A DNA stretch of 64,000 bases from a virus. Shown piece after piece: positions 28,508-46,716 of the stretch. The position numbers and the translations under genes were made by a program. The notes beneath the pieces are model-generated. The model was not told the DNA's origin, made no database searches, and saw only the letters and a program-made list of their open reading frames with translations. The stretch covers positions 1 through 64,000 of the IMG/VR virus record IMGVR_UViG_3300011116_000574; one strand, written 5' to 3'. Within the stretch, counting starts at the first letter, position 1; each line of letters starts with the position of its first letter.

Positions 28508-28750
28508 TTATAGTTTCATCTGGTCGCATAAGTCGCCGATAGTTCCCATTGTACCTGGTCTAGCCAGACCACGCCGTTGGCGTTCTGCCATTAGATTGAC
28601 ATACTCTGTGATAATCTCAAAGAATTGCCAATTCACTTCATCTGTTTCTACCGAAATGGCGGAAGCAAACAAAAATGGAGAGAACCTACTATCGTGTACC
28701 GCTTCAACCAATGCTGAAACTGCTTTACCTGTTTTATCTCTAGTGGACAT
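28508..28750 (-). CDS. hypothetical protein
   Basis: AAGGAG SD and TGTC-N12-TACACT promoter. Confidence 0.7.
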   Translation of the reverse strand: MSTRDKTGKAVSALVEAVHDSRFSPFLFASAISVETDEVNWQFFEIITEYVNLMAERQRRGLARPGTMGTIGDLCDQMKL

Positions 28751-28804
28751 ACTTCTCCTTATTTAGTTGTGACCTACAAGTGTACCATACATTACCGACA
28801 TAAA

Positions 28805-29164
28805 TCAAGCAATTCTTACAATTTTGTCATCGCTGCGTACAACAATTTTTGGAGCTGTAACCTTTTCACACTCACACCAAATCATATGTTGAGAGCATGC
28901 TGCACAGTTTACAAAGCCTACTTTATAACCTTCCTTGGTATACCCATAAAGGCTTCTAGCTTCACGCTGTAGGGTTTGTGGCTTTAGCCTGGTACTTTTA
29001 GTACCCCCAAAGTCTTTTACTTTATTTAGCTTTAATTTAGGTTGATCGTCATCGAACACCCCATCATATTTAGCTAATTCAATTTTCATTAGGTCGTTAA
29101 ATCGACCACGCTCGCCCACGGTGAATCCTAGGCTTCTTAGATATTCTCGTTTAGTCATTGTCAT
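28805..29164 (-). CDS. Lsr2-like DNA-binding protein with C-terminal Cys cluster
   Basis: REYLRSLGFTVGERGRF resembles the Lsr2 RGR AT-hook domain; CAAC...CEC. Confidence 0.6.
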   Translation of the reverse strand: MTMTKREYLRSLGFTVGERGRFNDLMKIELAKYDGVFDDDQPKLKLNKVKDFGGTKSTRLKPQTLQREARSLYGYTKEGYKVGFVNCAACSQHMIWCECEKVTAPKIVVRSDDKIVRIA

Positions 29165-29235
29165 TTCCATTTCTAATAGTCTTACCAAATATGATAGCTG
29201 TGGGTAATCCCACAGCCAACCATATAACTAAATAC

Positions 29236-29703
29236 TTAAGCATTTGTTGCTTCCCAATTCTCGTCATCTTTAATAAATTCTACTGCCCAATCTACAGCCT
29301 CATAGAACGCACCATGTACTTCACCTTCTGGCAGCACATCATCGTTCCATACTTCCCACCAAGGGTTATTTTGGTAGATATCAATTCCTCGTTCGTTCCA
29401 CCACAAATCATATAACTGACCCAAATCAAAGTCGGTCTTAGCAAATCGTTCTAGGTCATCGGTGTAGCGGCACACATTAATATCATGCTCTACCCATTGA
29501 CCTGGGTTATCCAAATCTTCGGCGGGAATTGAAATACGCATCTCTCCATTACGAGCTACATGAAGTACACGATCCTTATACTCTACTAGGGCAAATGTTT
29601 CACAATCATTTGAATAGGTATAAAACTCTGCAAACTGCTTATCTTCATATACAATCTCTGTATAGGTAATAGTTACATCATCTCGGTATTCTTTAAGTTC
29701 CAT
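29236..29703 (-). CDS. acidic hypothetical protein
   Basis: SD AAGGA; NNPWWEV motif. Confidence 0.7.
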   Translation of the reverse strand: MELKEYRDDVTITYTEIVYEDKQFAEFYTYSNDCETFALVEYKDRVLHVARNGEMRISIPAEDLDNPGQWVEHDINVCRYTDDLERFAKTDFDLGQLYDLWWNERGIDIYQNNPWWEVWNDDVLPEGEVHGAFYEAVDWAVEFIKDDENWEATNA

Positions 29704-30052
29704 TATAGGTTATTCCTTACTGTTGATATAGCACTAGCATACCCGTTATGCCAAGCTTTGTCAAGGTCTATTTCTTGATAATCCCCTGCCTCTAAAAGTC
29801 TATCCCAATTCTTTGCATCTTGCTCTTCTATTTCTTTAAGTACGGCAAACATATGTTCAATTAATTCATCTTTAGTCATTTGTAAACTCCACAGTAATAT
29901 AGTCCATTAGTTCGTTTTCATTAGATAGATTAGTTATATCTGTACAGAAAGCTTCTTTAGCATACTGTACTAATTCTTCTTCTGTCATATCTTCTACATC
30001 AATTGGCTCAAAGGCGGGATTGATGTAAAAAGTAATAGATGTTTTAAGTACT

Positions 30053-30385
30053 CTATTCATTGATTAACTCCAAATCTTCGTGTGTAAGGAATAGGCAATT
30101 TGCATCAATTTCAAAGTAGTAGCCTGTATCTCTGATGATTAAATTAAACCAATCATACGCCCACTCTGCTACTAACATTAAGTCTTCAAGGATAGACTCA
30201 TCACCAGGATAGTCATCTAATTGGTTTTTAAGTTCTTTCCAATCTTCTACATTTAGGGTCAAGCCAAAGTGTAGGGCTGTTTCAACAAGTTGAATATCGA
30301 ACTCTTTACCGCTCATATTAGTGCCGTCAATCCAGCAACCTAATTGTTCTTCTGTTACATCATTTAAGTCATATATTTTCTGCAT
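30053..30385 (-). CDS. acidic hypothetical protein
   Basis: First gene after repeat 30406; leaderless after TACCAT. Confidence 0.65.
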   Translation of the reverse strand: MQKIYDLNDVTEEQLGCWIDGTNMSGKEFDIQLVETALHFGLTLNVEDWKELKNQLDDYPGDESILEDLMLVAEWAYDWFNLIIRDTGYYFEIDANCLFLTHEDLELINE

Positions 30386-31130
30386 ACCCAATGGTAGCAT
30401 AAGTTCCAGAGAAAATCAAGGGGTTTCGTAATAAAGATCTAAAAATTTATCGGGTCCACCCGCAACCCCAATTAAGGGGCTGGAGCAAAGAAAGTATTAT
30501 CAAAAGCTTCGTCAACAGCATCACAGATACCACTTACAATAAAGTCAATGGCGTGTTCCTCATCTCCGATATCTAGGCTATCTAAATACTTTGCTATGTT
30601 GTCATATATATTACTCTTTAGTTCATCATACATTATTTGATCTCCTTATTGGATTTGTGCGGTAAGGGTACTTGGGGGGTGTGCAAAGAAAGCTTCATCA
30701 AAGGTATCTACAATAACCTGACATAGGTCATCATATACCCACTGCCTATCAACATCTAGATATTGTGACTGAACGGTATCCATATAAGATAGGATATTCT
30801 CTTGCAACTGTTCTCTTAAGTCATTTAGTGTCATTTGATTTTCTTCTTTCCAATAGTTACTGACGGATATACATTATAGAAATGTTTGACAAACTCAAGA
30901 GCCGTATCCCACTGCTCTAATTCAATACCTGTATCATTATGCATTTCAACTAGGTCATCTGCTAGTCGTTCTAATAATCTTAAGTCAATTAGTTTACTCA
31001 TATAGATACTATCTCCGTCTCAAACTCGTATAAATCTTCACCGTGATAACTACACCACGCATAATAACCGTCACTTACATCAAACAAAGAAACTTCATCT
31101 TTGCACCTACGACATACGATAAGTTCTTCT

Positions 31131-31304
31131 TTACTCATCTTCATCATCTTCCGTTACATACTGTTCATCTACATCAATGGCATACACTTCTGAGAAATTT
31201 GTATAATCTTCCCACTTCCAGCCCTCTGCTTCTGCTTCTGCAATATTATCTGCTTCCACTTCATAGTTAAACTTAACTGTTACTTCTACATCATACTTAG
31301 GCAT
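31131..31304 (-). CDS. small acidic protein, VEA..EA family (not in ORF track)
   Basis: MPKYDVEVTVKFNYEVEADNIAEAEAEGW...; coupled to upstream ORF. Confidence 0.65.
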   Translation of the reverse strand: MPKYDVEVTVKFNYEVEADNIAEAEAEGWKWEDYTNFSEVYAIDVDEQYVTEDDEDE

Positions 31305-31718
31305 AAGACACTTCCTCTATTTCGGTTGAATAAGAAAATTCTAGTGGAGCAAAGCCACACCAGTCTTTTAGAAAATCATTGGCTTTTTGTACTATTACTT
31401 GCTCTTCATAAATCATATCGTCTAGCGAACCCCTAGAGTTAATATTTACTAACTCTAGGTTGTCTACATCTACGGTTGTAGATAAAACAAAATAGTCTGC
31501 GATAAATGTTACTTTATATGAATTCAATTTCTACTCCATTGTTTTGGTAATCTACTGCTTCATCTTCGTGATATACATTATGACCCTTTGCCTCAAAGTA
31601 GTCAAACATATCTTCATAGTCTACACCATCAGGGTCGGCGGTGTCAAGAATAAATTGGTTATATTCTTCTTCATCTAACTCTATAGTATAAGTATGTAGC
31701 ATAGCCACATCATATGTT

Positions 31719-31901
31719 TTAACTAACCTGATAGTCATTGTATTCCCCCCATAGAATTTCATCTGGAATTGTTTCCATAGTGTCAAGATTGACGATAGTA
31801 TGTCCGTCTACAAAGTATTGGTTGTCACGATACATTGTTTCTGCTTCCTCAAATGACTCTGCTTCAACAAATGCTGTGATAGTAATTTCATATTCTGCCA
31901 T
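31719..31901 (-). CDS. small acidic protein, VEA..EA family
   Basis: MAEYEITITAFVEAESFEEAE; GAGG SD. Confidence 0.7.
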   Translation of the reverse strand: MAEYEITITAFVEAESFEEAETMYRDNQYFVDGHTIVNLDTMETIPDEILWGEYNDYQVS

Positions 31902-32321
31902 TTTGTTCCTCTCGGTAGTTGATACATCAATGGTATCAGATAGGTCAGACATAATCAAGTATAATCTCGGAGATTTTTTAGATCCTTCGTAATTAGAGCT
32001 TTAAAGGCGGGCGAACCCGAATACCCCATCTAATGATAGATGGGATACTCAAGGCGATCTAAGATAGTTGCAATTTTTCCTTGACAATATTCTGCAATCT
32101 TCTTTGCTTTATCTAAATCTTGAACAGTCAAGTCAAACGAGTTGTCTGCGTACTGCTCTGTTTCTAATCCATATTTCATAGCCTCAAACATACCAGCCAA
32201 CTGGTGCTTGGAACTTGGGGTTGTAATTGTTACAATCATTTTCTGTTTTCTCCTAGTTATGTGAAAGTGGGGTTTTTATTGTGGTTATCCCCAGCCACAG
32301 TTTACCTACCTACCCGTAGAG

Positions 32322-32789
32322 TTAGCCCTCGTTACAATAGACGACAAAGGTATCGTAGTCTTGGATTTCGTAGTCAGAGTTTTCGCTGATGATGTCAAAC
32401 GAGAAGTCGTGACCCTCTACGCTATCTGCATCAGTACCGACTGGTAGTGTCATTGTAACCGAGAAAGTTACATTTACATCAACGGTTGCTTCATTGGTTA
32501 GTTCAATGTCAAGCAAGCGAGCAATTTCATCTGCGTGGTCGCCTAGTTCATCATAGTTTTCAATTAGGTAGTCACGAACATTGTCAATTCTACCCTCTAA
32601 CTTGGTGTTGCGACTTGCTAGAATTGCTTTGTTGCTGTAAAGAGAAGTGACCTCGTGTGCTTCAAGGACTTTTGGTGTTACGCCTGAATAAACAGGCTGA
32701 TGTGTATTCACCACAATCTTGGCGTATGGGTCATAAGTTAGTTCGTCTGTTACGGTTTCGGTGCTTGCGTGTTTTGGTGCGTATGTCAT
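32322..32789 (-). CDS. acidic hypothetical protein
   Basis: AAGGA SD and cassette promoter. Confidence 0.75.
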   Translation of the reverse strand: MTYAPKHASTETVTDELTYDPYAKIVVNTHQPVYSGVTPKVLEAHEVTSLYSNKAILASRNTKLEGRIDNVRDYLIENYDELGDHADEIARLLDIELTNEATVDVNVTFSVTMTLPVGTDADSVEGHDFSFDIISENSDYEIQDYDTFVVYCNEG

Positions 32790-32948
32790 TTGTTTTCCTT
32801 ATCGGGTAGTTGTTATTACAATAATACACTATGGGGGCGACATAAATCAAGTAAAAGTCCAGAGATTTTTGAAGCTTTCGTAATTGACTTATCCAGGATC
32901 GGGATAACCCGCACCCCCCACAAAAGTGGGGGGTGGAGATTTACCTAC

Positions 32949-33716
32949 CTACTCAACCTCAAGTTCATCAAGTTCAGCAATACGCTTTTCGGCTAACAAT
33001 CTAAATGGGCAATCATCAAATAACCACTCTGACTGTGCTTCTAATTCATCTTTAGGTAGGGTTAGGATTTGTTGAGTTGTGTATTCATCAACTTCCCCCC
33101 ACACACAAGCGGTACAAGGTATGTCAAGTGCCATAAAGTCTGCGTGACTAGGGCTATCTACAAACTGGTCAGATACAAGTACGCCACCTGCGTAATGTAA
33201 CTTACCTGCAAAGAAGTTGGCTTCCTCTGTAATCTCATACTCAAACTCAAGATTAGGGAAACGCTCTGCCATAGCGTCATACGCTTCTACGGCTGGCGAC
33301 CAAGCGGTATCAAAAGACCAGTTAAAATACCAGTTACCGTCATTACGCTGGTCAAGGGTTATGTATTCTCGGTCTAAGGTTTTATCCCACTTAGTACCCC
33401 AGTTACGAACATTCCAATCGTACCAATGATTAGATACGGCTAGTTTATGCTCTATCTCTGGCAAAGATGAATTGAAATCTGTGCTTGCGGAAATCTTGAT
33501 TTTGCTTTGTGAGGCAAAGTATTCGTCAAGGATTTCGGCTGGCGGTGTAATAAAGTTCCAAAAAACACCTTTATCATTTTCATCTAAAACATTTGTATCT
33601 GTCTGATAGTCATAGTGATTAGATGTATGTGGCTTATCGGCAAAGTCTAGAAACTCGTTGAGTTCTGCTTCTGTCTTGGCTGATACGATTACTGAATTGA
33701 AACACCAGTTTGGCAT
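32949..33716 (-). CDS. DUF1281/YubB ferredoxin-like protein
   Basis: MPNWC.N, WYDWNVRNWGTKW, FDTAWSP. Confidence 0.8.
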   Translation of the reverse strand: MPNWCFNSVIVSAKTEAELNEFLDFADKPHTSNHYDYQTDTNVLDENDKGVFWNFITPPAEILDEYFASQSKIKISASTDFNSSLPEIEHKLAVSNHWYDWNVRNWGTKWDKTLDREYITLDQRNDGNWYFNWSFDTAWSPAVEAYDAMAERFPNLEFEYEITEEANFFAGKLHYAGGVLVSDQFVDSPSHADFMALDIPCTACVWGEVDEYTTQQILTLPKDELEAQSEWLFDDCPFRLLAEKRIAELDELEVE

Positions 33717-33752
33717 TTGCTTGTCCTTTCGGTAGGTTGTTAGACTATCTTA

Positions 33753-33953
33753 TCAGTTTTCGGGGGTAGTGTCAAGAGAAACTTCAACACCATCCCAATC
33801 ATAAATTGAATTTGTTGAAACCTGCAATGGCTGAAATGTTGGATCTGTGTTAGCCCAGTTTTCTGCGATAGTTAGTGCTTCATCATAACTGTCTGCTTCA
33901 ATGTGAATTTCATCTGAAACTGTGTAAGTTAGGTATGCGGTGTATGTTGACAT
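33753..33953 (-). CDS. small acidic protein, VEA..EA family
   Basis: MSTYTAYLTYTVSDEIHIEADSYDEALTIAE; AGGAG SD. Confidence 0.65.
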   Translation of the reverse strand: MSTYTAYLTYTVSDEIHIEADSYDEALTIAENWANTDPTFQPLQVSTNSIYDWDGVEVSLDTTPEN

Positions 33954-34204
33954 TTTTTCTCCTGTTGGTAGTTGGTTTGTAGTATGTGGGGGACTGGTCT
34001 TTAGTTCTAGAATTTCAACCATTTTCTCGTACCGTCTAGTGGTATTAGCCCCACATACATTATCTAGTGTACACTATGGGTCAGACATAATCAAGGATAA
34101 TTCCAGAGAATTTTTGGTAGCTTCGTAACTAGGGTAATTATGGCGGGTCAACCCGATCAAAAAAATTTTGTCAAATTTACTTGACAAACCCCGAAGGGCT
34201 GGGG

Positions 34205-35197
34205 TTATACCCCAGCCACTTCAGTTACGATTGACAACAGTTTATTTTTTTCTGCGTTCACAACAGGGTCAAAACCTGCTGTTCCCATAAGTAGACTTTC
34301 GTCATTACCGCGAGAAGTTCTGAACCAATCAAGGCGTTCGGTTAAAGCGTTGTACGCACCCCAAGCGTTGCCAGCAATCATACCGTTGGTATCGCCAACA
34401 TAGATTTCCTCTAGCAATTCAATCTTGTTTTCCCATTTCTTTACAGCACCCTTTTTGTCTGCTTCTGGCATTGGGTATGCAAGCGAAACAATCTGGTCAA
34501 ACTGTGCCTTGCTGATTTCAGTTTCAATCATAGCGTGTGCAAGTTTATCAAACTCATCAAGGTATGCGTTAGCAAGACCTAATGCTTCGCGAGCCTGTGC
34601 AACTCTACCGTCAATGGACTGCGTGTGTCGCAACTTGAAAGATTGGTTAGCACCCTTGCGGAATACTGCGGTGTGAGTATTCATACAGGTTAGGCGGATT
34701 GGTGTAACAGTAGCCTGAACAGCACTAGAACCATCGTGGCTCGTAGAGATAGCAAGGTAGTTCTTGACAACATCACGAACACCATTAGGGTCAAGTACGG
34801 TTTCACGCTCTAGGGCTAACGCACCGAAAACGATACGACCATTTTTCAATGAACCAGCAACTTCCCAACGACCACCGTCAAGTAGGTTATCGCCAAACGC
34901 AAAAAGTTCCTCGTTCTGTAAAGTTTTGTAACGCTTGCCCACAACTGACAAAACATTTGAGTGCTTGTCCTCTGGGTGGTCACGCACAACAAGAAAGTTC
35001 TCGGCGGTCATAGAATAGTTATCAGGTAATGGGATTTCCTCTAAGCGAACATTCCAATTATCTAGGTTTGCTAAAGATAGCATTTCAGAAGTAGTAACTT
35101 CATTTTGGAACACAGTTCCAAGTTGGTGGTAGGCAGGTGTACGCAGGGAAGCGTAAGAAGCCTGACCGTTGATGATTTCAATTTGGTCAATTGCCAT
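34205..35197 (-). CDS. DUF932 phage/plasmid-like protein (TIGR03299-type)
   Basis: PAYHQLG, YKTLQN, AGSLKNG, SHDGS, TPIRLTCMNT, RHT, NAWGAYNALTE. Confidence 0.88.
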   Translation of the reverse strand: MAIDQIEIINGQASYASLRTPAYHQLGTVFQNEVTTSEMLSLANLDNWNVRLEEIPLPDNYSMTAENFLVVRDHPEDKHSNVLSVVGKRYKTLQNEELFAFGDNLLDGGRWEVAGSLKNGRIVFGALALERETVLDPNGVRDVVKNYLAISTSHDGSSAVQATVTPIRLTCMNTHTAVFRKGANQSFKLRHTQSIDGRVAQAREALGLANAYLDEFDKLAHAMIETEISKAQFDQIVSLAYPMPEADKKGAVKKWENKIELLEEIYVGDTNGMIAGNAWGAYNALTERLDWFRTSRGNDESLLMGTAGFDPVVNAEKNKLLSIVTEVAGV

Positions 35198-35347
35198 TTA
35201 TTTCTCCTAAGTTAGATTTACCTACTAAGTGTAACACAGGGCTATGACATAAATCAAGGATTATTTTATTTAATCTCGGAGATTTTTTTGCCCCTTCGTA
35301 ATTGGATACGAAAGGGCGGGTCAACCCGCAGCTGCGGGTTTGTCAAG

Positions 35348-35421
35348 CGATCTGAACGGGACTTGAACCCGCAACCTCCGCCGTGACAGGGCGGTGCGCT
35401 AACCAATTGCGCCATCAGACC
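35348..35421 (-). tRNA. tRNA-Asp(GUC)
   Basis: Reverse complement GGTCTGA...CCGCC-CTGTCAC-GGCGG...TTCAAGT...TCAGATC-G. Confidence 0.93.
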
Positions 35422-35536
35422 AAGAAATGCGGGGAGATTTGCAACTCTCCCCGCACCCTGTTATGTTTATTAAATCTATCTATACACTCACCAAGCAATA
35501 ACATACAAAATGCTAGGCTACTGTTTTCTTGGCACT

Positions 35537-36007
35537 TTACCAAGAAGCCTGATACTCAAAATAATCAAACTTAGAAGCAAGGCAACGGTCAATTATTGCA
35601 ACCGTTTCTTTCAGGTCTACAAAATAGTATTCGTCATACTCGGTTGAACCAAAAAAGAAACCTGCACCTGTTGGCAAAAGTTCTGATGCCAAACTATTGT
35701 CGGCAAGAACCTGCTCACATAGAGATTTCAATTCCTCTAAATTCTCACGAGTAACAAACATTTTCTGACACTCGTCAATGCCATTACCAATAGTTTCAAC
35801 AAACCAATTATGGATTTGATTTGACTTACGCCAATAACCCATAGGGAAGTCAATAGAGATACCGCCAAAACTATCTTTAGAAACTTGGTCGGAAACACCA
35901 AACTGCTCTACAATCTGGTAAAACAATTCGTTGCGGTTGTCGTTATCGTTATCCCAATCGTATCGGGAAATGTATTCGCTTGCTGATAGGTATTGGTCTA
36001 ATCCCAT
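35537..36007 (-). CDS. conserved phage protein (MGLD...YWRK.NQIH.WF family)
   Basis: Recognisable motifs including GFFFGSTEYDEYY. Confidence 0.75.
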   Translation of the reverse strand: MGLDQYLSASEYISRYDWDNDNDNRNELFYQIVEQFGVSDQVSKDSFGGISIDFPMGYWRKSNQIHNWFVETIGNGIDECQKMFVTRENLEELKSLCEQVLADNSLASELLPTGAGFFFGSTEYDEYYFVDLKETVAIIDRCLASKFDYFEYQASW

Positions 36008-36186
36008 TTAGAACTCCTTATTTGTTGGTAGGTAAAAAGTGTATCAGATTATTTAGTTATTGTCAAGGGTTTGTGAGCCTTGCCTGTCACTTGCCGTAGT
36101 TTCGTATCTAGCCCCCACACATCTAGTGTTGTTACTAGGGGAACGCAAGCCGTTAGCCGTTTTATTACACTCACACCCTTGCTAGA

Positions 36187-36339
36187 CTACTTTACAGTTG
36201 TCCAGCGGTCTTGACCATTTACATCAAGACGAACACGCAAAGAGCCATTTGCGTTTGCGACAATCTCTTTTACGACACCCGTAACCTTAGACTTTTCGGT
36301 GGTTAGAGTATTGCCAACTTCAATAGATGATTTATCCAT
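36187..36339 (-). CDS. small SH3/KOW-like protein, divergent paralog
   Basis: VGNTLTTEKSKVTGVV...RVRLDV...RWTTVK, similar to 43042/44144/44828. Confidence 0.7.
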   Translation of the reverse strand: MDKSSIEVGNTLTTEKSKVTGVVKEIVANANGSLRVRLDVNGQDRWTTVK

Positions 36340-36978
36340 TTTGCTTCCTTTCGTAGTTTGTCTTACAAGTTTAGCATAGGGGTAGGACAAAAATCAAGGA
36401 TTATTGCTCAAGTTTTTCAATTAGTTTGTGGTACAACTGAACAAGTAATTCGGCATCATAATCTTCATAGGTGTCTACCCACTCAAGCAGTTCGTCTTTG
36501 CAGTGACGAATACCGTCTGCAAAACCATCTTCATAGTTACTCATAGCAACTCCTTTCGTTTCACATAGACTACCATACAATAGATAAAAAGTCCAGAGAA
36601 AAATAGGCAGCTTCGTAATTGACAAACCCCGAAGATCGGGGTATCCCGATCCCCCCAGAATTGGGGGGCGGGAATTAAAGTTCCTTATCGTGCTTTTCCC
36701 AAGCAATTATAGAACTAAAGATAAGACCTATCATTGAAAACACAAAGCCGACAACACACACACCAATTAGAACATCTAACATTAAGACCCCAACTTTTCT
36801 ACAAGCATTTCCTCATAGTCTACATAGTCTGCTTCCATTAGTTCATCATTGAAATGCCATACCTGATGATTGGGGTCAAATGCAACACCTTCATTTTCAA
36901 ATTTTACCATTGTGGTGTCAATGTCAATCTCAAACTTATCTGTGTCCTCATCATAAAAAACTACAAAATGATACTGCA

Positions 36979-37146
36979 TTATTCTACTTCCAATCCATAA
37001 ACATCATACTCAAAATGCTGACTGACTATTTTTAGGTCGTCTGCCATAAGTTCGTCAAAAATCTTTATGGCTTCCTCTTGTGTGTCGGCTTCTATGATGT
37101 CCTCAAACTCGGTTACTCGTTTAGATGAAAAATAATAATTTGGCAT
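36979..37146 (-). CDS. small acidic protein, VEA..EA family (not in ORF track)
   Basis: MPNYYF...IIEADTQEEAIKIF. Confidence 0.6.
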   Translation of the reverse strand: MPNYYFSSKRVTEFEDIIEADTQEEAIKIFDELMADDLKIVSQHFEYDVYGLEVE

Positions 37147-38774
37147 TACACCACCTTTTCCAAAATCTTAGTTAGTTGTTCTAGTGCTTCTGGCGATAGT
37201 TCATCTACCGCTTTCCAATCTATAACTGCTTCCCAATCTATCATTACTGCCCCACTCCAAAATCTGTTGCTACAATTTCAACTGCTTCATCAAGACAGTC
37301 AATTAGATTTGCTAATTGTTCTGGGGTCAAATCCTCTACCATAAAACTAGGTAATTCGGACTTCCACGCTATCTGTGAGCGGTAAGTATTGCCACACTCG
37401 GCACATTGTTCTGACATTTGTTTTCCTTTCGGTAGGTTTATGTTTCAATGGTACACCATAGGTCAGACATAAATCAAGGATAATCCAGAGAAATTTTAAG
37501 TGTTTCGTAATTGACAACCCCGCAGCAGCGGGGTACCCCGAAGGGTGGTAGATCTAACTACCCCACTCTATGCTTACTTGGGCGGAACTACCAAATAGTG
37601 CCTGGACAAAACCATTAGCATAGTAACGGTGGTTCTCGTTATCTTTATCAAACTCAAATGGAACCTTGCTCAAAAACTCTTGCCAATGGTGGTCTATGTC
37701 CTCTGAATAGACAGACCAGTTACCCTCGCGGTATTGGCGACTAATAGTTGCTCTCATCTTATCCCCCAAATAATTCGTTTAGTTTGTCAATGTCGTTGCC
37801 GTTCACAATTTCACGCACTTTTTCAGAAACACCGTCAAACTTGCGAACAAAGTAATCGCCTGTGTCACCGCTTATGCTGTATGTGACAGACTTGGCTTCT
37901 GTTGTGTGTTGTGTGTTGTTGTACATAACATCTGAACCAAACTCTAGACGACCAATAAAGTCAATCATACCTTCGGTAGTAATGTCAGAAAGACCAAAGC
38001 CGTATTCACCTGTTTCCAACATCATACGGATAATGTCTGTTTCATCATAGGTTGTTTCAATTCGGGCGGTAATTTGATAGGTCATTAGTTTATTTCCTTT
38101 TCATAGTTGATGATTGTAAATGATTTTGTTTCCTCGTTGTAAATACACTTTACCATAAAAGTCATACAATGTAAAGAGATTTTGTAAGTTCTTACTTCTA
38201 GGTCATAAAAAAAGTTGTCGCCCTCCCATTCAATAGGGCAAGCGTTCCAAAGAAGTTCGTGCATAAAACTATCTTTGGATACAGGTTCTAATGTTTCTAG
38301 TAATCGTTTCATTTGGCTCATACATAAAGAATAGCAGGTACATCTGACAAAATCAAGAATAATTCCAGAGATTTTTTGGCAGCTTCGTAATTTACATTAC
38401 GAAAGATCGGGTTATCCCGCACCCACCCCAAAGGGTGGGCGGTGGATTAGAGCCACTCTGTCAAATCACCATCACCATAGTAATCTTGCTTATGACCATC
38501 TGCTTCAGCAATTACTTCCCAAAGTTCATCTTCGGTAAAATCGCCATCTGGATACCACTCTGCTAGTAATTCATAAACTGCTTTATCCATTAAAATAAAT
38601 CCTCTACTTCCTCTACTGAATAGCCGTGAGCAAACCTATGAGCAATTACAATACGCATACTGTCGGTTGCTTCGTCAATCGCTTCCCACATTTCCTCTGT
38701 CCAATCATTGGTGTCTAGCAAGAGAATGCCCTCGCCATCACCATAGTTTCCGTCTGTTGCGAAATAATGTCCCA

Positions 38775-39104
38775 TTACACTTCCTGCCAAATCATCATAC
38801 TCTCAAACGAGTAACCATTTACTGTATTTTTAGTTAGGTCAATCTCTACCCACTCTGACCAATTATCAAATGTGACTTTAGGATTTACGGCAAAGATACC
38901 ATAACCTGTTTCATCAAGGATTTCATTTTGGATTAGGTGTGAAATAACCATACGAGTCCAATAAGAGTGGTCGCCTATTCGTGGTTGTGCGTGGCGAATT
39001 GCTTGGGCTAAATCGTGTTCCCAACTGTCTGCCCCCCAATGTGAATAAAGTGCGACTGCGTGGTCAGTTCCGTCATTGAATACAAAGGTTACTCTAGCAC
39101 CCAT
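38775..39104 (-). CDS. conserved hypothetical phage protein
   Basis: MGARVTF...LYSHWG; conserved leader AACCTACCGAAAG. Confidence 0.7.
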   Translation of the reverse strand: MGARVTFVFNDGTDHAVALYSHWGADSWEHDLAQAIRHAQPRIGDHSYWTRMVISHLIQNEILDETGYGIFAVNPKVTFDNWSEWVEIDLTKNTVNGYSFESMMIWQEV

Positions 39105-39939
39105 AATTTTCTCTCTTTCGGTAGGTTGATAAATCAAGTGTAGCAGTCTTGTCTGACATTTTCAAGGATAATTCCAGAGATTTTTGAACATCTTCGTACT
39201 TGACAACCCCGCAGCAGCGGGGTATCCCGCCTTTCGGCGGGGCTTTAATGGTTATTCCCAGAAGTCCTGTATTTCAGACAAGTCGTTGATACTTTCAATG
39301 TTGGCTCGCTCATAGCATAGGTAAAGCGTATTTAGTAAAGCGTGACCAATCATAGAAGCGGTGTCATAAGAAGCCAAATCTGCTTCTGTTAGATAATCAA
39401 AGTCAAATTCTTTTTCTGTTTCTGATAAAGCAAATAGGTATTGCTCTACAAGAGTTTCAAAGTCAATGAACATCTTGCCCTCGTGAACCATTGAATTTAG
39501 TTCGCCGTCTGCTATAAACATTTCTTTCCTTTCGGTAGGTTATGTAATAATCTTAGCACACATTACCGACATTTTCCAGAGAAATTTTAACTAATCGTAA
39601 ATAAGCTGAAAAAGATCGGGGTAGCCCGAAGACCCAGTTTGTCAAACTGGGTCGCAGGTGGTGTAGAAAAATTGGATACTATCCGCAGGAACATAAATTA
39701 TTTCATCACCTGTTTTTGTTTCAAAAGATAGTAATCCGTTTTCAATACGGAAAGCATTGTCTGGGTGAACATCTGGGAACTCATAGGGGTTAGCAATTCC
39801 GTTTGGTTGTTCTTTGTAGACAATGTGTAAGTTAGTTTGAAATTCCATTTAGTAGTCCTCTTTCGCTTCTGGTACACTAGCACCGCATAGCATACAGGTT
39901 GGGTTGGTTCTGTCTGTTACATTGACAATCGGGTGAACT

Positions 39940-40155
39940 TTACACTCTTTCATTTTTCAATAACGCCTTTCGCTCGTCACCGAGTAGACCGCCATAAATA
40001 CCGTCTACACTTTCATTTGAGAGTGCGAACTCTAAGCACTCTGATTTTACAGGGCAAGCGTTACACAATGACAACGCCAACGCCCTATCTTTTAGTTTGG
40101 CACTAAAAAAGATTTCTGGGTCTGCCTCTAAGCAATTTGCCTTATCCTGAAACAT
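39940..40155 (-). CDS. whiB: WhiB-family transcription factor (early)
   Basis: ANCLEADPEIFF...CNACPVKSECLEFAL...GIYGGL. Confidence 0.92.
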   Translation of the reverse strand: MFQDKANCLEADPEIFFSAKLKDRALALSLCNACPVKSECLEFALSNESVDGIYGGLLGDERKALLKNERV

Positions 40156-40313
40156 AATCTGCCTTTCGTTTGTTGGTAATACTATTATGACACACGCCAC
40201 CGACATTTTTGGTAGCGACACGCACAATTTCAGAGATTTTTTTGGGGCTTCGTAATTTGACAAACCCCGAAGATCGGGGTACCCCGATCCCCCACGAAGT
40301 GGGGGCGGGAAGG

Positions 40314-40781
40314 CTAAAGTCCCAACCCTTCGGCAAGAGAGTTAGCAATTGCTCTAACCTCTATTGCCCAATGCTCTGATAAGTCATCTTCAAGCATCTT
40401 TTCTGATAAGTCAAAGAGTTGTTTTACATAGTCTGGAACGCTGTCAGGTTGTGTTACTAGGTCTTCATCTTCATCAAGCCAAGCATCATCTACATAGTCT
40501 TCATCATAGCACCAAGCGGATAGGTGGTGTTGTTCAATGATTGCCCAAGCAGGTGCGGTTGATTTACCATTTTTGTAGAATACACCTTCAGGCAGTTCAA
40601 TTTCTAGACTGCCATTGTCTTCATTGTAAGCGTTGATTGCTTCAATACAAGGCTGAACCATAGTCAATGGGATTGGTGGATAGTGATTGCTTGTTAGTTG
40701 AATAGCAATTTGCTGTTCAAGGCTAATGTCAATACCGTATTCTGATAGACTTGCTAAGTCGTTTGCTGTGTTGTTACCCAT
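40314..40781 (-). CDS. hypothetical protein
   Basis: NHYPP...CIEAI...IIEQHHL, acidic tail. Confidence 0.7.
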   Translation of the reverse strand: MGNNTANDLASLSEYGIDISLEQQIAIQLTSNHYPPIPLTMVQPCIEAINAYNEDNGSLEIELPEGVFYKNGKSTAPAWAIIEQHHLSAWCYDEDYVDDAWLDEDEDLVTQPDSVPDYVKQLFDLSEKMLEDDLSEHWAIEVRAIANSLAEGLGL

Positions 40782-41119
40782 AAGAGTTACCAACCTTTCT
40801 TGTGTTTTAGTTTGCGAGTGTAGGCTTTCTTATTTTTATGACCACCGCTTGCGTTGGAACGGCGTAATTCCAAGCGAGCCTGTAACTGTTCAGGTGTTGC
40901 CTGTGTTGCTGTAATCATTTTCTTTTTCATACCTAAAGAATAGCACACCTCACCGACAATTTCCAGCATAACCCAGAGATTTTTTTGGAGTGTCGTAATT
41001 TGACAACCCCGCTCTGGCGGGGTATCCCGATCAGCCAGCTTTGTCAAGTCGGCTGTCGGTGTGTCTAATCTTTTTCGCTAAGAATTATGGCGATAAATTG
41101 CAATAGCATATAAATTAGT

Positions 41120-41653
41120 CTATTCATGTGAACCCCTGTAAATTATCCAGATTAGTGCTTGTGTTGTGCGAGGTGTTAGCCCCATTGCCTTAGCAACATC
41201 TTTAACCGCTTGTGCCATTTCGCGGTATTGTGTTTTATTTGGTGCATTGGTATCTAGTCCACCTGCGTAGCACATCCATACATCTATCGTTACCGCATTT
41301 TCATCGCCAGCAATTGCACGAGCGAACGCATTAGTTTTTAAGCCTTTAAGTGCATTGAACCCTAGCACTAAACTATTTTGTGCCATAACTAAATTGTTTT
41401 TTAGTCCTGTCGCTTTTCCTGTGTGTGCGAATTCTAACGCTTGCACAACATTTCTTGCCCAACGCTGACGAGGTGAGAATGATGAAACAACACTAGCACC
41501 ATTTTCAATAGTTGCTTTTATGCCACGACTAGCAAGAATACGCACAACATCGTGTGCCACTAATTCTGCATCTGCATACCATTGCGTAGCCAATTCAATT
41601 TGGGTAGCGGTTGCCTTTTTTGCAATTGCGAGGTAGTGGTTGAAGTAATCCAT
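41120..41653 (-). CDS. conserved phage protein, possible HhH-GPD/glycosylase-like fold
   Basis: WY, SPRQRW..N, KT..F, VTIDVW, QALIW motifs. Confidence 0.55.
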   Translation of the reverse strand: MDYFNHYLAIAKKATATQIELATQWYADAELVAHDVVRILASRGIKATIENGASVVSSFSPRQRWARNVVQALEFAHTGKATGLKNNLVMAQNSLVLGFNALKGLKTNAFARAIAGDENAVTIDVWMCYAGGLDTNAPNKTQYREMAQAVKDVAKAMGLTPRTTQALIWIIYRGSHE

Positions 41654-41779
41654 TTTTGCTCTTTTCGGTAGGTTGTAGTAATACTGTACCAGATACCGCC
41701 GACATTTTCCAGAGAAATTTTAGGCGTGTCGTAACTTGACAACCCCGCCTTGGCGGGGTACCCCGAAGGGTGGTGGGAA

Positions 41780-42076
41780 TTAGTTTTCCCAACCAAACAA
41801 AGAGCCTTCCGCATAGTCATCAATCATGTAGTCCATGTCACCAGAACCAAAAATAGCGTTCCAACAGTCACCGCAAGTACCTGTAATAAAGCGTTCACGA
41901 ACATCAACATCAAAATCAGATAGGACATCTTGAACATAAGCACCTTGATTGTATGCGTACAGTTTTTCAGGGGAAATCTGAATAGTGATAGTTTCATCAC
42001 AGGTTGGGCAAACCTTAGAAGTAACTGAATAAGCGGATAGGTCGGCGGTCTTGACAATGTTATTTAGAGTGAACAT
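41780..42076 (-). CDS. small zinc-ribbon protein
   Basis: CPTC...RERFITGTCGDCW. Confidence 0.75.
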   Translation of the reverse strand: MFTLNNIVKTADLSAYSVTSKVCPTCDETITIQISPEKLYAYNQGAYVQDVLSDFDVDVRERFITGTCGDCWNAIFGSGDMDYMIDDYAEGSLFGWEN

Positions 42077-42195
42077 TTTTTCTCCTTTAGGTTAATAGTT
42101 TTATTGTAGCATAACGCCCAGACATTTTCTAGAGATTATTTTGTGGTGTCGTAACAAGGCGAAGCTTGGCGGGGTACCCCGCAGGGTGATTGGGA

Positions 42196-42417
42196 TTATG
42201 CATCCCAACCAAAAAGGTATCCCTCAAAGCCCCTGTCCTCGTCACCCTCGTCAACTTCACAGACACACTCGTCTGTGCCACCGCAACTTGGGCATTCGTT
42301 GTCGTAGTCGTAGTCAGAGTATGGGTCATAAGTGTCAAGCAAAGCCTGTGTCCTTTCATCCTCAAATTGGTTATTCCAGATTTCCATCATTGTTTCGGCG
42401 GTGTAGAACTCATCCAT
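42196..42417 (-). CDS. very acidic Cys-containing small protein
   Basis: CPSCGG..ECVC; D/E-rich; ends LFGWDA like neighbour LFGWEN. Confidence 0.7.
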   Translation of the reverse strand: MDEFYTAETMMEIWNNQFEDERTQALLDTYDPYSDYDYDNECPSCGGTDECVCEVDEGDEDRGFEGYLFGWDA

Positions 42418-42749
42418 AGGTACTCCTCAAGGTTAGGTTGATAAAATAATTGTAGCAGGGTGCGGTGACATTTTTCAGAGATTTTTAAGGGGTGTCGTAA
42501 CAAGGGTTGGAGATCGGGGTACCCCGAAGGGCTGTGCTTGTCAAGCCGACACGCCTACAAGACATTGTATGTTGCTAAAAAAACAAAAAGAGGGGAAAAA
42601 CAAATAAGCAACATCAGAGGCAGGTCAAAACGGTATGCCTTGCCATTTGTTTTTTCATAATTATCTAGTTCAATAGCACCTAACCAACTAAAACCAAAGG
42701 TAATAAGTGATAGTGCCGAAGCGATTAAGATTGTTTCCATTTTTTCTCC

Positions 42750-42890
42750 TTATGAGTAGTAATCGGCTAGAGTGTCAAAGTCTGAATAATAGGCAGGGTC
42801 ATCATAAGCACCATAGCATTCTGGGCAAAGTAGGTTGCCATTGTTTCCAACATAGTCCATTTCAATTTCGCAAAATACGCAAAGTTCCAT
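42750..42890 (-). CDS. acidic zinc-finger micro-protein (not in ORF track)
   Basis: MELCVFC...LCPECY; GGAG SD; cassette promoter. Confidence 0.65.
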   Translation of the reverse strand: MELCVFCEIEMDYVGNNGNLLCPECYGAYDDPAYYSDFDTLADYYS

Positions 42891-43041
42891 TTTTATCTCC
42901 GTTCGTTATGCTTCAATTTTAACACAGGCTACTGACATTTTTCCAGAGATTTTTTGAGTGTGTCGTAACTTGACAAAGATCAAAAACGGGGTACCCCGCA
43001 GGGGTCGGCGTGTCAAGTCGACACGCCGAGTGTCTTGTGAA

Positions 43042-43194
43042 TTACCGCAAGGTAATCCATTTTGTTTCGGTATCAGTTTCCACCAATACACGAACAATTT
43101 TATCGCCACTCTTGGTGGTCTGTTCTGCTACATCTAGGGCAACACCTGATGTGTTACCGCTTGCTGATGTTACTAGGTCTCCGATTTTTACCAT
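43042..43194 (-). CDS. small SH3/KOW-like protein, paralog (not in ORF track)
   Basis: MVKIGDLVTSASGNTSGVALDV...KIVRVLVET...KWITLR; AAGGAG SD. Confidence 0.8.
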   Translation of the reverse strand: MVKIGDLVTSASGNTSGVALDVAEQTTKSGDKIVRVLVETDTETKWITLR

Positions 43195-43770
43195 TTGGTT
43201 CTCCTTTAGTTTGATGTTGCTATTGTAGCGGATAGGTCTGACAATTCTTGATTTACTCCGTCAATTTCTCGCTGTAAAGTTTCGGTGAGTTGTCGCTTTC
43301 CAAAGCCATTATCTAAGCCAATGGATAAAAGATAACCAACCTTTATCCAACCGTGTAGGCGGTCAGCGGTTCTTGGGTATTTTATTTTATCCAATTCATA
43401 CACAGCATTTACTAATTCCTCAGAAAGGTCTGCGAGTAATTTTTTGTCTGTCATTTGTTTCTCCATTTCGTTTGATGTTTTAATTTTAGCACGAGCCACC
43501 GACAAAAATTATTTTTGAGTTGCTTTTGCGATTTGTGCTATTTTTTTGGCATCTGCTTTACGCTGTTCGTCACGCTCTGCTTTTACCATTTTTTTCCAGT
43601 CATCAAAATTCATTTTTTCTCCTATTGGGTTGGTAGTTCTATTATGACAGACACCACCGACATTTTTCAAGGATAACTCAGAGATTTTTTGGGCGTGTCG
43701 TAACTTGACAAAGATCAAAAACGGGGTACCCCGCCCACCCCACTTTGTCAAGTAGGGTGGGGTCTTTGGG

Positions 43771-43944
43771 TTAGAACGGAACTTCATCCCAAAGGCTTTC
43801 CTGCTCACGCATTTCATCATAGAAAAAATCAGGGTCGCACTCTGGACACATAATCATCTCGCACTCGCAAGGGATGCCGTCAAACATCCAATCTGGAGAT
43901 GAGGTCTTGAAACTGACAGGGGCGGTGAAATCAAAATCTGACAT
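43771..43944 (-). CDS. acidic Cys micro-protein (not in ORF track)
   Basis: MSDFDF...CECEMIMCPECD...EVPF. Confidence 0.6.
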   Translation of the reverse strand: MSDFDFTAPVSFKTSSPDWMFDGIPCECEMIMCPECDPDFFYDEMREQESLWDEVPF

Positions 43945-44143
43945 TTTGAGCCTTTCGGTTGGTGAATACTAAAATTGTAACACAGGGGGCAGACATAAAT
44001 CCAGAGAAAAATAAGGTGTGTCGTAACTTGACAAAGATCAGAAAACGGGGTACCCCGATCTAATCCAGAGATTTTATTTTATCATCGTAACTAGAAGAAT
44101 AAGCTGCCCCGCCAGGGGCGAATTTTTTCGCTGTTGAAGTGGA

Positions 44144-44329
44144 TTACCGTAGGGTAATCCATTTCATTTCGTTACTGTCAGTTTCCACTAACACGCGAAC
44201 AATTTTTTCACCAGACTTAGTGGTGAAAGGTTGAACATCAACCGCCACGCCTGAAGTGTTGCCACTCGCAGAAGTGACGAAATCGCCAACAGTTACATTT
44301 TCCAATAATGCTTCAAGAATGTTACCCAT
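44144..44329 (-). CDS. small SH3/KOW-like protein, paralog
   Basis: VGDFVTSASGNTSGVAVDV...KWITLR. Confidence 0.8.
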   Translation of the reverse strand: MGNILEALLENVTVGDFVTSASGNTSGVAVDVQPFTTKSGEKIVRVLVETDSNEMKWITLR

Positions 44330-44383
44330 TTTTATCTCCTTTGTTTATGTTTCAATTGTAGCAGGGGGGACTGACAAAAATTA

Positions 44384-44524
44384 CTAATGTAATTCTGAAC
44401 AGTCTTTCATAGTACCGTCAAGCAGATACTCTACGCAATAACCGCAAACTGTGTTTAGGTCACATACAGGGCAAGATACCCACTCTGACCACTCATCACA
44501 AAACATTGAACAATAATCTAACAT
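44384..44524 (-). CDS. Cys-rich micro-protein (not in ORF track)
   Basis: MLDYCSMFC...CPVC...CGYC. Confidence 0.6.
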   Translation of the reverse strand: MLDYCSMFCDEWSEWVSCPVCDLNTVCGYCVEYLLDGTMKDCSELH

Positions 44525-44827
44525 TTGAACCTCTTTTCTTTATACCAAAATTGTACCACGCACCACCGACAAAAATTGAAACGACACGCCCAAACCCAGA
44601 GAATTTGACAAGGCTTCGTAACTGTGATAAAATTTTTGCCCCTGGCGGGGCGAAATTTTCGCCCCACTTTTTTATCGGTCTTTTAGAATTCCAAAAGCGA
44701 TTACGAATAGGGCTAGGGGTACGAACATTACGAACTCTGAGTGAATAAAGTTGTGTAGCATTTTATCTCTTTTCTTTTTGGTTATGGAATTAGTTTAGCG
44801 GATAGGTGTGACATTTTTTGAGGTGGA

Positions 44828-44983
44828 CTACCGTAGGGTAATCCACTTCAATTCGTTATCTTTAGTTTCAACCAAAACTCTAACGATTTTTTCGCCAGCC
44901 TTAGTTGTCATAGGGTTCACCTCTACGGCTACGCCTGAAGTGTTGCCACTTGCCGATGTTACCAAATCGCCGATGTTTGTCAT
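44828..44983 (-). CDS. small SH3/KOW-like protein, paralog
   Basis: MTNIGDLVTSASGNTSGVAVEV...KWITLR; AAGGAG SD. Confidence 0.8.
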   Translation of the reverse strand: MTNIGDLVTSASGNTSGVAVEVNPMTTKAGEKIVRVLVETKDNELKWITLR

Positions 44984-45652
44984 TTGCGACTCCTTTTCTT
45001 TTTGTTGATAAATCAATAGTACCATACGCCACCGACATTTTTTGACAGACACGCCGACAAAATAGATCCAAATTGTATACAATGTTTTTTGCGACACGCC
45101 GTCAGAGAATTTGACAACCGCTCGTAAATAAGCTAAAATTTTTGCCCCTGGCGGGGCGAAATTTTTTCGCTATTTTTTTCGGCGGGCGATTATGATTTTT
45201 CCTCGCTCTCTTTACTATCTGCACACGCAGAATAAATAAATACGAATGGCATTGATGCGAATACGATTACGGATACGGTTAGGGTTATGTTTAGTAGTGT
45301 TAGCATTTTTTCTCTTTTCGTTAGGTTGATGTTTCAATTGTAGGGGATAGGTACGACATTTTTACCAATTAGGTTTCATACCCTTGTGAGTGTCGCAAGT
45401 GTTTCCTGTACCTTGTTGGATAGGGCAGAAACAAATTACACAAGCAATTTGAACGGCGTTAGGGGTAACTAGGGCTAGTTCCAATTCAACGCTATCGGCG
45501 AATGATAGTTCGCTACTGTCAATCTGATTTTCACCATTTACGATTTTGATGTATCCCATTTTTTTCTCTTTTCTTTTTCTTGATGTTTCAATTGTAGCGC
45601 ATAGCACCGACATTTTTTGACAGACACGCCAGAGATTTTTGCGGGGCAAAAA

Positions 45653-45668
45653 TTGAACAAATGTTCAA
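45653..45668. promoter_or_regulatory. palindrome matching the GAAC-N4-GTTC LexA core
   Basis: TTGAAC-AAAT-GTTCAA at the divergence point of the early region. Confidence 0.45.
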
Positions 45669-45841
45669 ATTGGCGGGGCAAAAATTTTACCATAGGGGTA
45701 TGACAAAAACGGTTAGCGACACGCCGAAAATAAAAAAACATTGGATACAATCTTTTTTCAAAACACTAGCCAAAATGCCCAAAAATGTCGGCGGTATGTG
45801 TTACCATTGATGTATCAACAAAAAATGAAAGTAGGTTCAAA

Positions 45842-46000
45842 ATGGACATTTTGGAAAAAGTAGTCAAGCAACGCCTAGCAAATGCTAAGGCAACCGCAAC
45901 CAATTTTGATGAATTGGGTTATGACAGTAGTGCCGAATTTTGGCATAGTGTCGCTGGAATTCTTGAAGCAATTCTTGATGAGGCAGAGATTTGGGCATAG
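45842..46000 (+). CDS. small hypothetical protein (divergent early cassette)
   Basis: TGTC-N12-TACCAT promoter at 45786; SD before MDILEK. Confidence 0.7.
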   Translation: MDILEKVVKQRLANAKATATNFDELGYDSSAEFWHSVAGILEAILDEAEIWA

Positions 46001-46064
46001 CCCAAAAATGTCTGCCCTATCCGCTACAATTGACACATAAACAAAAAATGAAAGTTGGTAAAAA

Positions 46065-46364
46065 ATGTCATACTCTTACAATCCTAACGGCGAAAAGGTT
46101 CACGCCTACATTTTGGAACTAGACGCAATTTCGTTCGGCGTACTAATGGCGAATTTCGCGCATAGTATTTTTTCAAATGATAGTTGCGCCTACACAATTG
46201 AGAAATGGTGGAAATTCTGTGATGATGTAGCAGAATGGCTAATTTATGATGATGAGGAATTTGCGAATTCCCTAAACATTTATACGCCGACAGAATGCGC
46301 CGATTGTGGCGGAAAAGGTTGGTCATTGAACCCGATTGAACACGAATACTATTGCGGTTCATAA
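46065..46364 (+). CDS. small hypothetical protein
   Basis: TGTC-N12-TACAAT promoter at ~46009; followed by terminator. Confidence 0.7.
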   Translation: MSYSYNPNGEKVHAYILELDAISFGVLMANFAHSIFSNDSCAYTIEKWWKFCDDVAEWLIYDDEEFANSLNIYTPTECADCGGKGWSLNPIEHEYYCGS

Positions 46365-46380
46365 AACGCTAATGCGTAAT

Positions 46381-46410
46381 GGTGTGCCTATGGGCGCACT
46401 ATTTTTTTTT
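46381..46410 (+). terminator. intrinsic terminator
   Basis: GGTGTGCC-TATG-GGCGCACT then A and T9. Confidence 0.75.
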
Positions 46411-46716
46411 GCCTACACGCAAAATTTTTGTATCATACAAAAAAAATAAATATTAACATTTTGATCAAACTGATTTATATGTGACCAATATCACATTTAT
46501 AAGTTGGCGGGGTCTATAAAAGAGCTATAAACTAAAAGCAGGGCAGCTATAGTCAATACAATGGGAGCAAATATTCCCTTTTTGGGTAATTTGCCCTTAA
46601 TAATGTCTCTTGACAGCAAACAGATCATAAAAATGAGTGAAGTCAGGTAGAATAAATTCAAAATAATCACAATTTTCTCCTAAAAGGGGTTATATTATTA
46701 AATACTACTGTATTTA

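Follow-up and report, generated by a model that had tools for sequence, protein, structure and literature searches.

Sharply bounded loss of short palindromes from a block of small genes in an uncultured phage genome

Phages reportedly avoid restriction sites, and with them short palindromes, throughout their genomes, as set out by Sharp in 1986 and by Rocha et al. in 2001. Avoidance can also depend on where a site lies. In T5 and BF23, restriction sensitivity is set only by sites in the first-step-transfer repeat (PMC10644984; bioRxiv 10.1101/866236), and in Autographiviridae the early-injected region is reported to decide sensitivity to Type I restriction (PMC12455610). A further described system, the promoter/stem-loop cassettes (PeSL) of T4-type phages, mediates shuffling (PMC2839356, PMC4122927). 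Here we describe a block of about 14.2 kb, at 32240..46440 of a 64,000-nucleotide stretch of viral DNA (positions 1 to 64,000 of IMG/VR record IMGVR_UViG_3300011116_000574; hereafter the window), from which short palindromes have been purged. The window is the first part of a 100,657-bp metagenomic viral contig, in which the purged stretch occurs once and makes up 14% of the genome. An earlier note on this DNA, made from the sequence, had reported that GATC, AGCT, GCWGC, CCWGG and GCGGG are almost absent from the genes of this region and packed into the repeats between them. The observation is real but understated, as the loss of palindromes reaches beyond those five words.

The block, delimited by a depletion scan of 4-mers, holds 40 called genes (about 38 small ones on the minus strand and 2 on the plus strand), one transfer RNA (tRNA) and about 26 early-type promoters. 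Of the 16 possible palindromic 4-mers, 14 take the 14 lowest places when all 4-mers of the block are ranked by representation, and the five strongest words fall from about 30 per kb outside the block to 2.5 per kb inside. This depletion survives a codon-preserving control in which synonymous codons were shuffled within the block 300 times with proteins and codon usage retained (z of -3.5 to -8.8). Against the expectation of these shuffles, GATC occurs once in coding DNA where 31.8 copies are expected, a count that none of the 300 shuffles reached, and AGCT is absent (39.0 expected), as are ATAT (36), TCGA (34) and ACGT (30). The losses of TTAA (9 vs 50), TATA (5 vs 33), CATG (3 vs 27) and TGCA (22 vs 48) are less complete. 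Longer and interrupted words follow the same course: GANTC is found once in the genes (22 expected), CGWCG, CASTG and GTCTC are also depleted in the block, and six-base palindromes number 55 rather than the 240 expected, with 49 of the 64 words absent. With respect to the five words named in the earlier note, the purge from genes is strong for GATC and AGCT, whereas GCWGC (0 vs 2.5), CCWGG (1 vs 4.9) and GCGGG (0 vs 2.7) are too rare to test and not individually significant; because only 2.5-4.9 copies are expected, their absence from coding DNA proves little.

Both edges of the block are sharp to about 100-250 bases. In the left edge zone (32172..32321), the gene at 32030-32239 keeps ATAT, TGCA and GATC, and the adjoining gene at 32322-32789 is purged. 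The right edge zone (46395..46449) lies just past the terminator of two plus-strand genes, with dense palindromes from 46450 onwards. The abrupt return of sites described in the earlier note was thereby confirmed, at ~46,450; its starting point of 30.4 kb did not hold, as depletion begins at about 32.2 kb. Small minus-strand genes span the region from 47.7 kb down to 26 kb and so extend past both edges. An internal control is provided by three composite spacer elements outside the block (28250..32019, minus strand; TTACGA at 28327, 30431 and 31992), which carry ATAT, TATA and TTAA; block-type promoters, also on the minus strand, lie among them at 28800 and 31951. Since unpurged elements and promoters of the same family are found just outside the edge, the edge is independent of gene class, which points to a physical boundary. 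The GC content is 41% in the block and 36-37% outside.

Outside the block, the ranking of words is a different one. The contig has no copy of GGCC, CCGG or ACGT anywhere, although 93, 81 and 109 copies are expected outside the block alone, and CGCG, GCGC and TCGA have observed/expected ratios of 0.22-0.48 genome-wide. The ratios in the rest of the genome are 0.79 for GATC, 0.70 for AGCT and 1.03 for ATAT. We take the ranking outside the block to reflect the enzymes that escape later phage protection, and not how common each enzyme is. Many of the purged words are sites of known Type II enzymes. A non-palindromic word is affected as well: on the sense strand of coding DNA, GGAG occurs 4 times (23 expected) and CTCC once (12 expected), or 5 vs 35 jointly. 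GGAG persists in ribosome-binding sites, with 21 copies in the spacers, and many ribosome-binding sites of the block read AAGGA or AAAGAG rather than GGAG. This loss suggests a non-palindromic DNA target. Avoidance of GGAG as an internal ribosome-binding site was considered and rejected, because sense-strand CTCC is lost to the same degree and GAGG and AGGA show no depletion. A general avoidance of AT-rich words or TA steps was also rejected, given that AATT and CTAG are normal and that a relative, L009, purges ATAT but not TATA.

The non-coding DNA of the block was divided into gaps (1.4 kb in total), each reaching from a stop codon up to position -60 or so of the promoter that follows, and promoter plus leader (1.7 kb), with expectations from dinucleotide-preserving shuffles. 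GATC occurs 13 times in gaps (2.8 expected) and once in promoter plus leader (4.0 expected), and AGCT 6 times in gaps (2.4 expected) and nowhere in promoter plus leader (2.5 expected). GGCC and CCGG are missing from gaps, where 10.2 and 13.3 copies are expected, and from promoter plus leader (1.2 and 1.5 expected). TTAA is reduced in both compartments (2 vs 10.2 in gaps, 7 vs 16.6 in promoter plus leader), CGCG is absent from gaps (5.6 expected), and CATG, ACGT and TCGA are near zero there. The words can thus be placed in three tiers. The first, not tolerated in the block, comprises ACGT, GGCC, CCGG, ATAT, TATA, TTAA, CATG, TCGA and CGCG, and largely GCGC and TGCA; ATAT, TATA, TTAA, CATG, TCGA, TGCA, GCGC and CGCG are purged from coding and non-coding block DNA alike. 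The second tier consists of GATC and AGCT, which are kept out of genes, promoters and leaders and remain in gaps; these two words alone are excluded from the transcription units yet present between them. The third, AATT, CTAG and GTAC, is tolerated throughout. Every palindrome outside the first tier exceeds its expectation in gaps, by 4.6-fold for GATC, 2.6-fold for GTAC, 2.5-fold for AGCT, 1.8-fold for AATT and 1.5-fold for CTAG.

These figures also bear on the claim that sites are packed into the repeats. Coding and non-coding counts in the block are 1 and 17 for GATC, 0 and 10 for AGCT, 0 and 9 for GCWGC, 1 and 4 for CCWGG, and 0 and 31 for GCGGG. The claim was upheld for GATC and AGCT in gaps and for GCWGC in all non-coding DNA of the block (9 vs 2.8 expected); it was not upheld for CCWGG, which falls below expectation there (4 vs 7.4), and the abundance of GCGGG (31 vs 5.3) is that of a hairpin stem. 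When sites are grouped by flanking context as a control for shared repeat ancestry, GATC falls into 11 clusters and AGCT into 9, which is at or above expectation and leaves no large excess. The presence of GATC and AGCT in gaps is therefore non-depletion with a mild excess and not massive packing. Of the exceptions listed in the earlier note, GATC at 33842, CCTGG at 37601 and a cluster in and beside the tRNA-Asp gene are present in the block, and GATC at 32056 lies just outside it. The tRNA-Asp gene (35347..35421, minus strand) keeps two GCGC and one GATC, and TGCA, TTAA and TATA adjoin it; purged words persist here because the sequence is under functional constraint.

The spacers carry 22 copies of a composite element, all on the minus strand, that are built from hairpins, TTGTCAA-TTACGA, an A-run and TCTCTGG. 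The sites that the earlier note had located in these repeats are all in place. In the element at 32790..32948 (minus strand) they are AGCT at 32873, CCAGG (CCWGG) at 32893, GATC at 32897 and CCCGC (GCGGG) at 32908. In the element at 36559..36674 (minus strand), GCAGC (GCWGC, 36607) and AGCT (36609) adjoin TTACGA, and two GATC (36634 and 36648) flank GGGATACCCC. A double element at 43945..44143 (minus strand) holds AGCT at 44102, GCTGC (GCWGC) at 44103 and CCAGG (CCWGG) at 44112, together with GATC at 44036 and 44057. The element at 40183..40310 (minus strand) shows the whole arrangement, with hairpins, TTGTCAA-TTACGA, an A-run, TCTCTG and a promoter of the form TGTC-N12-CATAAT, and it contains an 18-bp perfect palindrome, GATC-GGGGTACCCC-GATC, at 40272-40289. 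Terminator-like sites number 28 (12.9 expected) and promoter-like sites 53 (37.5 expected), and about 27 promoters of the form TGTC-N12-TANNNT are found among the leftward small genes. Nearly every gene has its own promoter.

The design of these signals varies with the words that are purged. The -10 box TATAAT is found in none of 26 promoters in this phage and in none of 23 in relative L003, and L009, which tolerates TATA, has it in 14 of its 17 promoters; -10 boxes in the block read TACAAT in place of TATAAT. The hairpin stems are made of G-runs and C-runs, which keeps them free of GGCC, CCGG, GCGC and CGCG. The centre of the G-run/C-run hairpin is GTAC in this phage, TCGA in L003 and L002, and GATC or GCAC in L008, and a homologous element outside the block has a TTAA/AATT centre both in this phage (near 30,470) and in L008 (near 13,650). 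As a separate observation, the minus-strand promoters at 38321-38349 and 40930-40958 have a TATTCT -10 box with an ATG just 6-7 nucleotides downstream, and their mRNAs are probably leaderless; leaderless mRNAs are common in Actinobacteria.

Relatives with 58-96% identity in the DUF932 protein encoded in the block keep a depleted block. Its length is about 8-14 kb in loci that cover it wholly or for the most part; in L001 and L014 the contig ends after some 2-3 kb of it. Orthologous block genes share 70-86% nucleotide identity and their order is shuffled between relatives, and since the purge is kept despite this divergence and reordering, it is actively maintained. In L008 an orthologous edge lies directly after the ortholog of the gene at 32322-32789. 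The set of purged words differs by lineage: L003 tolerates TCGA, L009 TATA and L012 AGCT, and the genomes of L009 and L014 contain neither GATC nor AGCT. The split of GATC and AGCT between genes and the DNA outside them recurs in L008 (0 in genes and 12 outside for GATC, 0 and 13 for AGCT) and in L003 (2 and 8, 2 and 5). It was considered whether the near-absence of these two words from genes is an ancestral relic; this was rejected, as the L008 orthologs differ by about 15-30% and both genomes have close to no sites.

The contig encodes a terminase, portal, protease, HK97-type capsid and 3,281-amino-acid tape measure protein, which indicates a siphovirus, along with six tRNAs and one transfer-messenger RNA (tmRNA). 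The capsid shares 54% identity with its counterparts in Streptomyces phages, and those phages that were looked up are Stanwilliamsviridae; uncultured relatives of about 95-110 kb number in the thousands. A megablast search of the block against known phages returned zero matches. The predicted host is an actinobacterium, a reading that follows from two WhiB-family genes, one in the block (39940..40155, minus strand; PF02467, 63.9 bits) and one outside it (23199-23372, plus strand); a control search for WhiB gave signals in Corynebacterium only. Genome bins of the relatives conflict, one being cyanobacterial and one Bacteroidia, and given the WhiB genes these are taken as mis-binning. The earlier note had invoked methylation, and the whole contig was searched for DNA methyltransferases with profiles PF00145, PF02086 and PF01555; none was found. 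The tmRNA lies at 18929-19168 (plus strand), encodes the tag peptide GVSQNTLALAA and adjoins a five-tRNA cluster at 6.8-11.2 kb, and the tape measure gene lies beyond the window (G000:C1 66575-76420), its product length implying a very long tail.

Functional annotation of the block proteins is limited to DUF932, DUF1281_C, DUF7178 and WhiB. The DUF932 protein (330 amino acids; 34205..35197, minus strand; PF06067, E 9.5e-46) is encoded about 2-3 kb from the left edge, and two plus-strand genes with a block-type promoter (45842-46000 and 46065-46364) form the right end. DUF1281_C (Api92-like ferredoxin-like domain) and DUF7178 proteins are encoded at 32949-33716 and 41120-41653, both on the minus strand. 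DUF932, DUF1281_C and DUF7178 are families of unknown function that are seen on mobile elements, the DUF932 literature being uninformative on this point, and their genes are candidates for early anti-defence genes. Beyond the right edge, an extremely AT-rich intergenic region (47723-47871) separates the leftward early arm from the divergent rightward arm of RNR and structural genes. TATATAACT is repeated there in tandem about 8.7 times (47730-47808), and nowhere else in the genome are palindromes so dense, at 42 strong words per 500 nucleotides. Relatives show a similar spike 1-1.5 kb past their blocks, and this region may serve as an origin or as a regulatory hub.

We hypothesize, with a probability of roughly 60%, that the block has to work in the cell at a time when the phage has yet to disarm restriction, and that it is most likely a collapsed terminal repeat that resembles the first-step-transfer DNA of T5. 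The idea of early DNA that avoids restriction sites had framed the earlier note, and it is supported by the sharp edges, the synteny with terminal repeats and the lineage-specific word sets; sequence-specific host enzymes would produce such differences between lineages. If the block were exposed first and unprotected, selection against cleavage would fall almost entirely on it. Synonymous codon choice would then remove short palindromes, GANTC, CGWCG, CASTG, GTCTC and GGAG from the genes, and the non-coding signals would be reshaped into TACAAT -10 boxes and hairpin stems of G-runs and C-runs. The gaps, being rich in hairpins, would generate short palindromes, and only the less costly words could serve there. 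GATC and AGCT may thus carry a graded cost, such that they are removed where change is free and are too cheap to be kept out of hairpin DNA. We favor a graded cost because inverted repeats abound in the gaps and because palindromes outside the first tier exceed expectation there; the survival of purged words in the constrained tRNA gene fits it as well.

Synteny suggests that the block is probably a long direct terminal repeat present as one copy in the assembly. Samisti12, a member of the Stanwilliamsviridae, has a 10,666-bp terminal repeat in which some 20 small leftward genes are followed, at its end, by a single rightward gene. The two plus-strand genes at the right end of the block mirror that lone gene. 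After the Samisti12 repeat come further leftward genes and then RNR, portal, protease, capsid and tape measure genes, and the order is the same here, so that both the gene order after the leftward early arm and the capsid are Stanwilliamsviridae-like. The gp2 protein of Samisti12, encoded 1.2 kb from the left end within the terminal repeat and hence present twice per record, is 49% identical to the DUF932 protein of the block and has the same orientation; WhiB genes are likewise present in Stanwilliamsviridae. A collapsed repeat that joins the right and left arms would give this arrangement in an assembly.

Several results weigh against the terminal-repeat and early-entry reading. The contig is typed as linear without end repeats, at an estimated CheckV completeness of 81%, and in an alignment of relatives' contig ends to the block edges, the ends lie inside the block or beyond it and do not coincide with the edges. 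Three more distant relatives (L010, L011 and the 110-kb contig G001:C31) have no block. Samisti12 itself differs, as it lacks GATC genome-wide, shows no purge limited to its repeat and has a GC content of 53% (37% here), and when its repeat genes were compared with the contig, DUF932 was the sole shared gene. In T5, the repeat shows a mild dip only for GGCC, CGCG, CCGG and AGCT (observed/expected 0.46-0.68) and keeps the other 4-mers, and tblastn searches of the contig with T5 dmp, A1, A2, T5.002 and T5.011 gave no match at E 1e-3. We know of no 4-base enzyme that recognizes ATAT or TATA. Finally, a graded cost does not by itself explain why GATC and AGCT are split in the same way in L008 and L003 despite diverged spacers, nor the GATC excess that remains after related copies are collapsed.

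The split between genes and gaps admits other explanations. It is possible, in keeping with the sacrificial cut points suggested in the earlier note, that selection guards the unit of promoter and gene, so that a cut in a gap is harmless or even useful, with the second copy of the repeat available to restore the sequence. The confinement of GATC and AGCT to the DNA between units, the same split in L008 and L003 and the provision of nearly every gene with its own promoter all fit this idea, which we nonetheless consider unlikely: gaps that are shielded or harmlessly cut would tolerate every palindrome, and the purge of first-tier words from them goes against its general form. The loss of GGCC, CCGG, TTAA, CGCG, CATG, ACGT and TCGA from gaps would require an extra, word-specific assumption, and host exonucleases would usually degrade linear fragments. 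GATC and AGCT may instead be signals of the spacers, either methylation-sensitive switches or parts of protein-binding palindromes, that were cleared from genes to keep the signal clean, a reading that takes in the methylation-state sensors and shielded decoys of the earlier note. The sites do recur at set places, on the flanks of a 10-18 bp G-run/C-run palindrome, as at 40272-40289, and just before and after the invariant TTACGA, and 29 of 45 elements in four genomes have GATC, AGCT or GTAC within 20 nucleotides upstream of TTACGA; GGAG, a true ribosome-binding signal, splits in the same manner (5 copies in genes where 35 are expected, and 21 in spacers). However, neither the exact positions nor the words are conserved between close relatives, a 4-base word is too short for a specific signal, and the contig yielded no DNA methyltransferase. 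The sites can also be dispensed with, given that L009 and L014 have no GATC or AGCT and that promoters of this type remain strong in L009, and a signalling role seems quite unlikely. Both of these explanations are weakened by the purge of first-tier words from gaps and by the lineages without GATC and AGCT.

Two further explanations concern the block as a whole. Its composition could be that of a shared pool of genes, exchanged as cassettes among phages of many hosts, and have little to do with first-entering DNA. A GC content above that of the flanks, a cassette order shuffled among relatives at 70-86% nucleotide identity and spacers that resemble the T4-type shuffling cassettes (PMC2839356, PMC4122927) would suit such a mosaic island. 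Yet cassettes of the same family just past the edge are unpurged, the left edge of L008 is at the orthologous place, and the higher GC content follows directly from the removal of AT-rich palindromes; the purge, kept across about 20% divergence with a word set particular to each lineage, speaks for current selection tied to position, which leaves this origin improbable. If early phage nucleases degraded host DNA at short palindromes, this would also impose a purge limited to the block, since early DNA would have to lack their sites, as Davison hypothesized for the T5 protein A1 (bioRxiv 10.1101/866236, section 4.6). The lack of a known function for most block proteins is compatible with this, but at least 13 words would require many nucleases, no nuclease domain was found in the block proteins that were scanned (ten against Pfam, twelve against PHROGs), and the rest of the genome, with its normal site density, would need separate protection. 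We regard self-avoidance as highly improbable.

If restriction is the agent, as we infer, the block has several uses. A purge of this type could act as a computational marker for first-exposed DNA, probably a terminal repeat, in uncultured phages, and it would show that restriction pressure can bend codon pairs, -10 boxes and hairpin design. The purged words would predict restriction specificities in uncultured freshwater Actinobacteria, including ATAT and TATA. The recurring split between genes and gaps also poses the question of whether the unit of selection against restriction is the molecule or the expression cassette. In its boldest form, which we hold to be doubtful, the proposal is that freshwater actinophages carry a terminal restriction-proofed module that reads out the restriction repertoire of the host, with GATC and AGCT deliberately kept between gene units as break points, protected sites or methylation signals. 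Were that retention deliberate, the target of selection would be the expression unit rather than the DNA molecule.

Compared with genome-wide palindrome avoidance, the block is alike in that short palindromes are under-represented relative to composition, and differs in that avoidance lies mostly in 14% of the genome, with sharp edges, near-total loss and tiers that separate genes from gaps. The earlier note knew of no described system like this one, and a literature search found no paper on a region-limited purge of nearly all palindromes or on the split between genes and gaps; that novelty holds for the breadth and for the split, but region-limited avoidance as such is known from the first-step-transfer DNA of T5. 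The spacers recall PeSL in that repeated elements of terminator hairpin and early promoter flank small genes of unknown function whose order is shuffled between relatives. The sequences are unrelated, the phage family is another one and no link between PeSL and restriction sites is described, so the analogy is one of architecture only. The Autographiviridae case shares the importance of site position relative to entry order; it differs in that it concerns one Type I motif in podoviruses and no such broad loss of palindromes (PMC12455610). The closest likeness is to the first-step-transfer DNA of T5 and BF23 (Tequintavirus), a left terminal repeat of about 10 kb: T5 and this phage are both large siphoviruses with tRNAs, and both carry small, mostly leftward genes with a short rightward unit. 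The link to T5 is an analogy and not family membership. With 13-14 of the 16 palindromes purged, the block bears a far stronger region-limited signature than the T5 repeat, and one that restriction of first-entering DNA would account for.

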